Below are positions 1,208-5,290 of a stretch of 64,000 bases of DNA, piece by piece. The DNA is from Escherichia coli (lineage in GTDB: Bacteria > Pseudomonadota > Gammaproteobacteria > Enterobacterales > Enterobacteriaceae), in assembly GCF_030384885.1 (NCBI RefSeq), contig NZ_CP128613.1; one strand, written 5' to 3'. The notes under the pieces are model-generated. The model had not been told where the DNA came from and ran no database searches. It was given only the letters and a program-made list of their open reading frames with translations. Numbering within the stretch: the stretch's first letter is position 1; each line of letters starts with the position of its first letter. Both the position numbers and the translations under genes were made by a program.

Positions 1208-4200
1208 TCAAATGTTTTTATAACATGTCACATGAGAAAATCCAAGTTTTGCCATTACGCTTTGCTCACCTGTTGCCAGGGAAATTTCGTATTGTTCATT
1301 GGAGTTTGCGGGACTAGATGACCAATACATATCTGAATAAAAATCGGCTTCATTCATGTAATGCCCCATATCTCCCCATTCACTGTACAATGTCCCTATA
1401 CCTCGGGAACGACCCTGGCTTAAAAGGCTTGCACGGGGAAGCATGTAGCCATTGCTACTGCAAAAATTTTCAGCAAGGCTGTATATCATGAAAGAATCGC
1501 CGGAGTTTACCCACCAACTCTTCACCCGGATTTCGTATATATAGCCAGGGCCTCCTGATTTTGGCGTCGCTGTAATCGTTACCCAACTGCTTCCGACATT
1601 TTTAAATGTCACTTTACCGGTAGCGTCAACATCGACCCAGGAGGCAGAGCTTGAAAACTCATAATCAGCCGCCGTTTTGCCCGGGGAAAAGTTGTCATTA
1701 TTCAACTGATAATAAGCCCCAGTGAACCCCTGCGAAGGGAATGTAGTTGTCGGTAGGTTAGCACCATTGACTAACACGGTACCGCTCATTATTTTGTCTT
1801 CTGCGCGAGTGAATTGTATTGTGGTACTCAGACCCGCTTGATGAACACCATTCAATACAGGGATCAGCGTTGCGATACCCTCTCCGCCTCCTATAACAGT
1901 GGCTTTGTAATCACCGTTGATATTTTGACTGTAATCAATTGCGCTAATTTTCACATAGGGCACGTTAGTACCTGATTGCACAAATTCCATCCCTTCAGAA
2001 ACTTTGATCGGATTGCCTGATATATCGTGCAAAACAAGATGTAGCTCAGCACTATCGGTATAGTCCCCTTTTAGTGATGACCGATTGTTCTTAAGGACGG
2101 ACTGCGAGGCGTCTGCCGGGCCTGCCACCAGCGTTATATTAGCTGTTTGCGTTGCACCTGTGCTCGTTCCTGCACTAACAGTTACGCTCCCAGTTCGCGC
2201 ACTTTTCAAGGTGGTTGTCGCAAATCCGTGTTGATCGGTCACCGCTGTTAATGACCCTAATGTGGCAGAGCCACTTTTTAATGCGAAGTTCACATTGACG
2301 CCTTCGACTTGGTTACCACTGCCGTCCTCAACAGTAGCCTTCAGCGTGCTGATATCGCTGTCGTTGGCAGTGATAGTTGACGGATCAGCGCTCAGGCTGA
2401 CCACATGGGCTGTGCTTTGGTTGCCAGTAACTTTCACGATTGTCTGCGCCTGAATAATTACGCCACTAGTGATAGATGCTGTAACCGTATACGTACCGAC
2501 TTTATTGCTGGTCAGAACGACTTGTGCCTCCCCGGAAGGATTGGTTTTCATTGTTTCGCTACTTAACGTTGCATCTTCTGGCGTTACGCTAAAGGTAACG
2601 AGTTCATTGTTCACTGGGGCCCCATTTGGATTGGTTAGCCTTACTGTCAGAGTTGAACCTAATGGGTCATTGATGCCGATAAGTGGACTTGATGCTGTGA
2701 GTGTCAGTTTTAAATCGATTACCACCAGGTCCTTCTCATAAGAGGAGCCATTCGCCAGGGATGCTTGCACAGTATACGAACCGTATCTATTGGGCGTCAT
2801 GGTGACCTCGGCTATACCCTGTGTATTCGTAGAGACCGTATCCTGACTAATGACCATGTTAAAAAATGACGGCTCTGCACTGAATGTCACAAGCTGTTCA
2901 GAAACTGGATTGCCAAACTGGTCGTCGACGTGCGCTTTAACCGCCAGGGGGGTTGCGACCATAACCTGACCTTCAGGCATTTCCAGACTGGTGATCGTCG
3001 CAGAATCAGCATCTGCTTTGACAGTCAACGTTTGCATGATGGTATCTGTAGGTGCATTTGCCAGATTAGCCACAACAATTTTCGTCCCTGCAATGGTGCT
3101 TGTTACAAGAATTTCTGCCTTACCCTGAGCATCTGTTTCAGCGGTGGTGTTACTCAGCGTGGCGGATAAGCCGCGGAAATTGACCTTGATGCCTTCTAAT
3201 GGATTGTCATAAGCGTCAGTGACACTTGCCGTCAGGGTCGCACCCTCGGTTGTGCTGGCGATTAATGAGCTTGATGATGCGGTAAAATCAGCCAGTTTAG
3301 CGGTACTCGCATCGGCAAGCAAAGTCACCGGCCTCGTATCACTGACACCATAACTGTCCACGCTGACCGTCACGGGATAGGTGCCGGACTTCGTACCGCT
3401 TAGTGTAACTTCCGCCTTGCCGTTGATGTCAGTAATGGCGGAACCGCCTTCTCCAAGAGTGAAGCTTGCACTCACATCTGCCGGTAGTGTGAATGTCACC
3501 GGCTCATTGGCTAACGGGTTGCCGTGTCCATCAGTCACCGTTGCCTGAAGTTGGGTCATCCCAACGTTATTGGCGATAAAGTTGTTCTCGGTAACGTTCA
3601 GATTAACCTGCGCTGTGAGCGTATCCGCAATAAAGTTCACCACCAACTGCTCACTCTTACCGCCAGCCATCGCTGCTGTCACGGTATGTGCTCCTGCTTT
3701 TGTACCTTTCAGTGTGACTTTCGCTTTGCCTTCAGCATCAGTAACCGCTTTACCGCCATCGCTCAGCGTGAAGTTTGCCCTCACATCTTCCGGGAGAGTA
3801 AATGTTACTTCAGTGTTGGCTATCGCATTGCCCTCTGTATCTGCGACTGTTGCTGTTAATGTCGTGAGATCGTTATTGTCGGCAATCACCGGATCTTTTG
3901 AGGCTCCCAGCGTGATTTCAGCATTCGCCACGTTCGGCACATAGGTCACTGTTTGTTGTATCGAATCGCCATTGTCGAGCGTTGCCGTCACTTGATAAAC
4001 CCCGGCTTTTGTAGCGGTAAAGCTTGCGTAAAAATGGCCGTAGGAGTTGGTAGTATATATAGCGTTATTACTGGGGGTCACACCTTCACTTGGCGAAACG
4101 CTGATGGTCACCTTATGTTGGGGTACACCGTTTCCGTAATTATCGTTTACCACAACATACAGATCGGTCGTGTTGCCTGCGGAGACTGTATCAGTAAGTG

Positions 4201-5290
4201 CTTGTAACAAGGTGATATGTGCCGTAGACGCATCAGCGTTGACATTAATTGATGTGCTAAGCGTGGAGCTACCATTTTCCAGACTGGCCTCAACGGTATC
4301 CGGCCTCCCTCCTGATTCTGCCGAGGAACGGGTATTGGTATAAGTGACGGTTGCCTTACCCTGTTCGTTCGTTACGGCTTGGCCGCCATTCGTCATTTCA
4401 GCAGAGTTTGTACTGCTGGTGAAACTCACAGTTACACCTTTCACCGGAAAGCTATTATTATCAACGACTGTCGCGGTGATGACGCTGCCGGTGCTATTCT
4501 GCGGGGTACCAGCGATTATGCTGTTTGGGACAGACGTCAACCCAATAATTTTTGCCGCAGCTGTGTCGCCAATAAAGTGCACAGTTTTGTGGTCGCTGGC
4601 ACCATTATTAGCAAGTGATACAGTGACCGTCTGCTCACCAAAGGCAACGCCTACGAGAGTGGCCTGCGCGATGCCAGACTCATTGGTATTACTCTCCCCT
4701 GGGGTGAGGGTGAGGCCTGAAGAGGCTGAGCTGAATGTTACCGGAAGATTGTTCACCTCATTGTCGAACTGGTCTTTAACCGTTGCAGTTAACGTTGCAC
4801 TATCGACGCCATTACCCGTGATCTCATCTTTTGACATCTGCAGGGCAACCTGAGCCGAGGTTTTGTCTGCCACAAATGTTACCGGCTGCGATTCACTGGC
4901 ATTGTTATTAATCAGCGTCGCGGTAACTGTATGCGTGCCCGCTTTTTTACCTTTGAGGGTGACATGCGCTTCCCCATTGGCTTGGGTGACGGTAATACCG
5001 TTATTTTCAAGGGTAAAGTTTGCCGCGACGTCTTGTGGCATGGTGAAATTCACCGCTATCCCCGCCACCGGATGATTCGACGGATCTTTCACTGTAGCTG
5101 TCAGCTGCACACTGTCGCTGTTATTCGTCACCACCTGGTGAGCAGGAATGTTCAGCGTGAGCCGCGCGTTGCTGGCATCGGGAGCAATATTGACTGTCTT
5201 CGAATCGCTATTGCCGTTAGGCAGAGTGGCTTCGGCTGTATGAACACCCAATACCGCGCCTTTTAGGGTAACTTCAGCAAACCGCCATGG
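1208..5290 (-). pseudogene. yeeJ: 5'-truncated inverse-autotransporter adhesin (YeeJ-like, tandem Big_1 Ig-like repeats)
   Basis: 1347 aa ORF made of repeated Ig-like modules (..VTLKGTKAGTHTVTA..); Ig-repeat frame continues upstream of the first start to a stop at 5294-5296; no signal peptide, LysM or beta-barrel region; K-12 YeeJ recalled as about 2358 aa. Confidence 0.65.

Follow-up and report, generated by a model that had tools for sequence, protein, structure and literature searches.

Introduction

Type Ve export proceeds by targeting to the Sec machinery, insertion of the beta-barrel and export of the C-terminal passenger as a hairpin via the protein's own barrel. In the case of YeeJ from Escherichia coli, surface display requires the N-terminal modules of the protein (PMC5595812). 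In K-12, where YeeJ is 2339 aa long, yeeJ is found directly downstream of asnT, in the order asnT, 370 bp, yeeJ, yeeL (a GT9 pseudogene), shiA and amn. A 906-bp “long” variant of the UMN026 type was also described (Martinez-Gil et al. 2017, PMC5595812). The gene was reported as intact in 38 out of 96 complete genomes (PMC5595812) and in 44 out of 126 in another study (PMC6714894). In the former, mutations or deletions were found at yeeJ in 15 of the 96 genomes, and this instability was attributed to recombination beside the asnT integration hotspot (PMC5595812).

Here, we analysed a 64-kb stretch of E. coli DNA (64,000 nucleotides, hereafter the window) in which a 5′-truncated yeeJ faces the stump of a hypE-like gene. 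HypE and HypF (TIGR02124 and TIGR00143) are maturation proteins of [NiFe]-hydrogenase. The hypE-like gene of the window is part of an islet that, in the closest complete genome, separates yeeJ from asnT.

Comparison with the closest complete genome

Among 5,426 complete RefSeq E. coli genomes, the closest relative of the window is strain 2013C-4282 (NZ_CP027579.1). The flanks are collinear and interrupted by a single gap (Table 1): 7,161 bp of NZ_CP027579.1 (492137-499297) are missing from the window. This segment contains the 5′ half of yeeJ and its 767-bp upstream region, a LysR-family gene, a cysteine hydrolase gene and codons 1-258 of hypE. The divergent promoter region between the LysR and hydrolase genes and three quarters of hypE are therefore also lost, and it is the yeeJ-proximal (asnT-distal) end of the islet that is gone. 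No copy of the deleted DNA, of the barrel, or of the LysR or hydrolase genes was detected elsewhere in the 64-kb window by blastn and tblastn, the only matches being due to internal self-similarity of the Ig repeats.

Table 1. Coordinates of the aligned blocks, of the junction and of the genes around it (window positions)
Feature	Position	Strand	Description
Aligned block 1	1-5280		NZ_CP027579.1 486857-492136; 0 mismatches
Aligned block 2	5279-11883		NZ_CP027579.1 499296-505900; 0 mismatches
Aligned block 3	34279-64000		NZ_CP027579.1 505887-535608; 2 mismatches
Deletion junction	5279..5280		2-bp microhomology AA, common to both parental flanks; base-by-base extension from each side
yeeJ remnant	1208..5280	-	codons 1307-2662 of 2662 plus 2 bases of codon 1306; stop 1208-1210
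5′ end of the open yeeJ frame	5251..5293	-	5293-5282 (L P W R) is antisense hypE sequence
hypE-like stump	5281..5535	+	codons 260-343 of 343; last 84 codons, end of AIRS_C domain
Callable stump ORF	5287-5535	+	ATG 5287; 82 aa, identical to HypE residues 262-343; ends ...AELPRLC
hypF-like carbamoyltransferase	5507-7885	+	intact; HypF 788 bits, cut-off 466 (NCBIfam)
HAD hydrolase	7878-8618	+	intact; annotation
MFS transporter	8618-9811	+	intact; annotation
Integrase gene fragment 1	10263-10400	+	islet boundary
Integrase gene fragment 2	10395-10565	-	islet boundary
tRNA-Asn asnT	10727-10802	-	

As two genes that are cut short in the window become complete with the extra segment of the reference, we consider the state of the window as derived, that is to say a deletion here and not an insertion in the reference; parsimony argues for this polarity. 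The deletion is also recent, since no substitution is found across 11.9 kb of flank and only 2 SNPs over another 29.7 kb. The sequence-only reading, made before any alignment, had proposed that one deletion removed the yeeJ promoter and N-terminal codons together with the distal part of the asnT islet, which agrees with the single gap. It also described the locus as a relic, which overstates its age, as there are 0 substitutions relative to the intact allele.

Apart from the two shared bases, no homology or repeat between the two breakpoint regions was found above chance. We also considered that the locus could result from two or more successive events, such as separate deletions, or the insertion of an IS followed by an IS-mediated adjacent deletion and excision. 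Such a history would be in line with the IS3-family insertions seen in yeeJ of other strains (H19) and with an islet that is decaying elsewhere, as indicated by an independent hypE nonsense mutation (locus L007). However, the join shows neither an IS remnant nor a target-site duplication nor filler DNA, each flank follows the reference without a break or a mismatch up to the 2-bp overlap, and no intermediate allele was found in the collections searched. We thus leave only a slim chance to a multistep history.

The yeeJ remnant and its parent allele

The intact parent in 2013C-4282 is WP_157942752.1, annotated as an “Ig-like domain-containing protein” of 2662 aa. Compared to K-12 YeeJ, it has a 302-aa insert at residues 1063-1364, which identifies it as the 906-bp long variant (PMC5595812), and is otherwise 89% identical. 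Pfam detects an IAT_beta domain at residues 144-419 (E=4e-113), corresponding to a 12-strand IAT beta-barrel, and 17 Big_1 stretches. At its N-terminus, we observed a signal-peptide-like segment, MGIKLRRLTAGICLVTQLVFPMAAAAQG, and, by eye, a LysM-like stretch at about residues 70-118, the Pfam LysM model remaining undetected even at E<=1. This stretch corresponds to the Prosite-defined domain of PMC5595812. Both elements lie in the deleted part. In total, codons 1-1305 of 2662, or 49% of the protein, are lost, and not roughly 1000 codons as the sequence-only reading had estimated. The lower figure is explained by the breakpoint, which aligns after K-12 residue 1043, whereas the parent is a long variant: codon 1306 falls inside the 302-aa segment specific to that variant.

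The 1356 YeeJ codons that are kept encode only the Big_1/Invasin_D3 repeats of the passenger and a putative, lectin-like cap at the C-terminus. The 3′ 4,073 bp of the intact 2013C-4282 gene show 0 mismatches to the remnant, and the C-terminus is unchanged from the intact allele. In the remnant, Pfam recovers ten Big_1 stretches (509 bits, E=1.6e-156) and Invasin_D3 (265 bits), with Invasin_D4 slightly below the cut-off (25.9 bits for a cut-off of 27), while IAT_beta (PF11924), LysM and other N-terminal modules were not found. A sequence search with the C-terminal 300 aa gave no match among PDB chains. A periodicity of 609 bp reflects the highly repetitive nature of yeeJ.

On the minus strand, the frame is open from 5293 down to its stop, over 1361 codons, and the junction codon (5281-5279) reads F instead of V1306. 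The first in-frame start, TTG 5251, gives the longest ORF (1347 aa) and is the one picked by gene callers. By exact-protein look-up, this 1347-aa product is present in GenBank as CAD6032200.1 (“putative invasin”), and the version starting at ATG 5041 is not on record. No signal-peptide-like segment, with a basic n-region and a hydrophobic h-region, follows any of the 11 in-frame ATG, GTG or TTG codons of the first 200 codons. These results are in agreement with the sequence-only reading, which had described an Ig-repeat frame running to about 5290, with no signal peptide, LysM or beta-barrel and with an opposite-strand HypE-like frame beginning within a few bases of its end; all the coordinates that it gave are right within 3 bases. 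Intact yeeJ homologues range from 2339 to 2671 aa, so that a naturally short form does not account for the size of the remnant.

By descent, the remnant is a yeeJ orthologue, as judged from its identity to the intact gene and its synteny at the asnT-yeeL locus. The window shares the K-12 gene order, in reverse, while the reference has an islet of about 8 kb between asnT and yeeJ. The flanking GT9 gene and asnT/mtfA/serU are arranged as in K-12, and in locus L003 shiA and amn are located past the point where the window starts.

The hypE stump and the islet operon

HypE residues 259-343 map to 5278-5532 by tblastn. The yeeJ and hypE frames overlap by a few bases only, around 5280, and the TAA at 5269-5271, already pointed out from the sequence, is in frame with ATG 5287 and closes the stump frame upstream. 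The stump is found in GenBank as CAD6032225.1, an “AIR synthase-related protein”, and keeps the C-terminal Cys (...PRLC). Intact HypE scores 415 bits on TIGR02124 for a cut-off of 251.6 (NCBIfam); the form in the window does not have the full-length AIR-synthase-like fold with its N- and C-domains.

In the islet, the genes are tightly packed, with overlaps of 4 nt (cysteine hydrolase/hypE), 29 nt (hypE/hypF), 8 nt (hypF/HAD) and 1 nt (HAD/MFS), from which we consider that cysteine hydrolase-hypE-hypF-HAD-MFS form one operon. In the reference, candidate divergent promoters are located between the LysR and hydrolase genes, in the part that is deleted here; the candidate for this operon, TTCAAA-17-TACAAT, precedes the hydrolase start by 16 nt. 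The remainder of the operon (5507..9811) shows 0 mismatches to NZ_CP027579.1. Since the candidate promoter and the LysR gene are both inside the deletion, the hypF-HAD-MFS genes, intact in sequence, are probably transcriptionally orphaned and silent. The removal of the regulator and of the probable operon promoter goes beyond what the sequence-only reading had proposed.

Expression and export

The two stumps are arranged head to head, and each is deprived of its own 5′ end and of everything upstream, so that both presumed promoters are lost. Upstream of either stump, a consensus scan detected no sigma-70-like site over a distance of 1.2 kb, with the minus strand covered over 5293-6524. Likewise, no promoter-like site was found in 4800-6400, and the counts of such sites over 1-11900 do not exceed those of shuffled controls. 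While consensus scans are weak evidence, they suggest that the retained 1356 YeeJ codons are promoterless. A plausible AAAGG motif is present 8-9 nt upstream of TTG 5251, and spurious antisense transcripts may lead to low-level translation in the cytoplasm.

With tblastn and the N-terminal 450 aa as query, no translocator-coding sequence was detected in the 64-kb window. Considering the type Ve mechanism and the requirement for the N-terminal modules (PMC5595812), we infer that translation from TTG 5251 would yield a protein confined to the cytoplasm. Taken together, the predicted lack of export and of a promoter would make the locus a null allele of yeeJ. From the domains that it encodes, the remnant is not an inverse autotransporter by function, having neither signal peptide nor barrel, while it does have a Big_1/Invasin_D3 passenger. 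Nothing suggests that it has a function.

The truncated ORF could nonetheless have been kept as useful, either as a cytoplasmic protein or as a silent donor of Ig-repeat cassettes that recombine with other inverse-autotransporter genes, or the loss itself could be adaptive by eliminating a surface antigen or receptor. The frame is unbroken over 4 kb, and the lineage, which persists, was recovered more than once. However, after a recent deletion an intact ORF is expected by default, so that the uninterrupted 4 kb, with 0 substitutions relative to the intact allele, are not evidence of constraint; the promoter scans also speak against usefulness. One metagenome contig (L009) combines this junction with distal repeats that diverge, possibly through recombination, but as the product of a metagenome assembly this mosaic could be a chimera. 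Finally, the locus is frequently missing or broken, and no cost of this is known (PMC5595812). Among the 5,426 complete genomes, an 828-bp barrel probe has a full match in 2887 and a 1.2-kb passenger probe in 2895, with about 2,060-2,080 further partial matches per probe, these counts being aggregate figures that cannot be paired per genome; about 38% of the genomes thus have only partial probe matches. Altogether, retention for use, or an adaptive loss, appears very improbable.

Occurrence of the junction

As a probe for the junction, we used the exact 41-mer across the join, CTTTTAGGGTAACTTCAGCAAACCGCCATGGCAGCTAATAT. The junction is absent from all 5,426 complete RefSeq E. coli genomes, and the 41-mer has exact matches at 9 loci, which come from at least 8 independent assemblies. 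The carriers are GCA_904842275.1, which shares 11.5 kb with the window at 100% identity, GCA_051323845.1, the Logan assemblies SRR18593988, SRR14995614, SRR35948513, SRR17241682 and SRR16894925, and the ENA metagenome contig ERZ13616183. Three carriers show private SNPs, different in each, at other positions of the 11 kb, and four clustered differences near 10.1 kb are seen in a fourth. The same junction in independent assemblies with private SNPs points to one inherited deletion in a circulating lineage and not to an artefact.

A mis-join or collapse in a draft, hiding a true genome with intact yeeJ and hypE, might be suspected from the 609-bp periodicity of yeeJ, from the source apparently being a draft assembly and from the lack of the junction in complete RefSeq genomes, but we rejected this as highly improbable, because the join links an Ig repeat to unrelated hypE sequence and not repeat to repeat, and because the identical 41-mer recurs in the two NCBI assemblies, the five Logan read-set assemblies and the ENA contig listed above, which carry different private SNPs.

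Discussion

In this study, we propose that a single, recent deletion of 7,161 bp left the scar seen at window positions 1208-5535, that it took place in a clonal E. coli lineage to which GCA_904842275.1 belongs, and that the outcome is a null allele of yeeJ. We estimate the probability of this reading at about 93%. The breakpoint was mapped to 5279-5280 by the alignment, suggested by the sequence-only reading, with a genome in which both yeeJ and the islet are intact. The ancestral order would be the one kept in 2013C-4282: a yeeL-like GT9 gene, a long-variant yeeJ (2662 aa, minus strand), the 767-bp upstream region and the LysR gene, followed by the divergent cysteine hydrolase-hypE-hypF-HAD-MFS operon, the integrase remnants and asnT. 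Illegitimate recombination at the 2-bp microhomology would then have fused yeeJ codon 1306 head to head with hypE codon 259.

More speculatively, the loss itself may have been selected, with a large surface adhesin or antigen and a costly accessory islet gone in one step before the lineage spread, or the remnant may act as a silent donor of Ig repeats, as the L009 contig hints. We regard these possibilities as very unlikely.

The main value of the locus is practical, for annotation and strain typing. The entries CAD6032200.1 and CAD6032225.1 should be flagged as pseudogene fragments, which would keep adhesin and virulence-gene screens from scoring the lineage as yeeJ-positive, and the exact junction sequence is a handy clonal marker for typing this lineage. 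The asnT-yeeJ region was already known to be unstable, and the locus provides one more case, here with a precisely mapped breakpoint. It raises no new biological question.

With respect to known systems, the islet proteins resemble the maturation proteins HypE and HypF in that the intact forms exceed the equivalog cut-offs. Their companions are an isochorismatase-like hydrolase, a HAD phosphatase, an MFS transporter and a LysR regulator, and the islet itself contains no hydrogenase or hypABCD genes. Compared to the long UMN026-type YeeJ, the remnant is identical over residues 1307-2662 and occupies the same position between the yeeL-like GT9 gene and asnT, but it has no signal peptide, LysM-like region or IAT beta-barrel and lacks the first ~7 of 17 Big_1 repeats. 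The breakpoint pair yeeJ codon 1306/hypE codon 259 is not mentioned in PMC5595812 or PMC6714894 and is absent from the 5,426 complete RefSeq genomes. The allele is thus new and precisely mapped, belongs to a known type of yeeJ disruption and represents a case of ordinary gene decay. Indeed, it shares with the disrupted alleles of PMC5595812 the same locus, the same loss of function and the same explanation, namely instability at the asnT hotspot, and differs from them in that part of a rare HypE/HypF islet was removed and the HPI is not involved.

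Decay of the asnT islet

Most of the asnT islet, which lies between yeeJ and asnT, is held by only 16 of the 5,426 complete RefSeq E. coli genomes. Its HypE and HypF paralogues score above the NCBIfam equivalog cut-offs, and their genes are accompanied by those of an isochorismatase-like cysteine hydrolase, a HAD phosphatase, an MFS transporter and a LysR regulator, with no hydrogenase genes within the islet itself. It is conceivable that the HypEF carbamoylation/cyanation chemistry is put here to a use other than hydrogenase maturation. What is left of the islet's integration module, now decayed, is a pair of short, overlapping integrase fragments next to asnT.

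The same islet was also found in L007, a locus retrieved from Logan, where its chromosomal surroundings differ: the integrase ORF is longer, and EIIC-GAT/SIS sugar genes lie nearby. In this copy, a C>T change that turns codon 251 into a stop has independently inactivated hypE, leaving the same callable 82-aa ORF as the hypE stump of the window. Therefore, there is more than one route of decay for the islet.

The exact deletion junction is present in a metagenome contig from ENA (L009), which is identical to the window over 4250-10500. This contig diverges strongly (with as many as 65 differences in a 250-bp stretch) in the part equivalent to 2091-4250, corresponding to the distal yeeJ repeats, and mildly beyond 10500. 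This divergence reflects either recombination after the deletion or a chimeric metagenome contig.

Coordinates of the features described
Feature	Location	Remarks
Glycosyltransferase family 9 gene	window 1-828	cut by window start
asnT islet, window form	window 5281-10565	
asnT islet, intact form	L002 (retrieved locus) 10821-18583	
Integrase fragments	window 10263-10565	phage integrase N-terminal; Arm DNA-binding domain
asnT islet, copy in another context	L007 5218-6249	Logan SRR30235506
Metagenome contig L009	equivalent to window 2091-11534	ENA ERZ13616183 NODE_98
serU island (~22.4 kb)	window 11884-34278	at 3′ end of tRNA-Ser(CGA) serU
14-bp direct repeat	window 11870-11883 and 34279-34292	flanks serU island

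Neighbouring features

The island inserted at serU is missing from 2013C-4282, the closest complete genome, which is otherwise near-identical to the window. Relatives in other E. coli share about 95% identity at 86% coverage. In these related islands, the annotation of a MobQ relaxase and of SIR2, TIR and DUF6387 proteins suggests that the serU island is a mobilizable defence island.

Finally, the glycosyltransferase gene truncated by the window start is intact in 2013C-4282 (1071 bp), and its counterpart in K-12 is the pseudogene yeeL.
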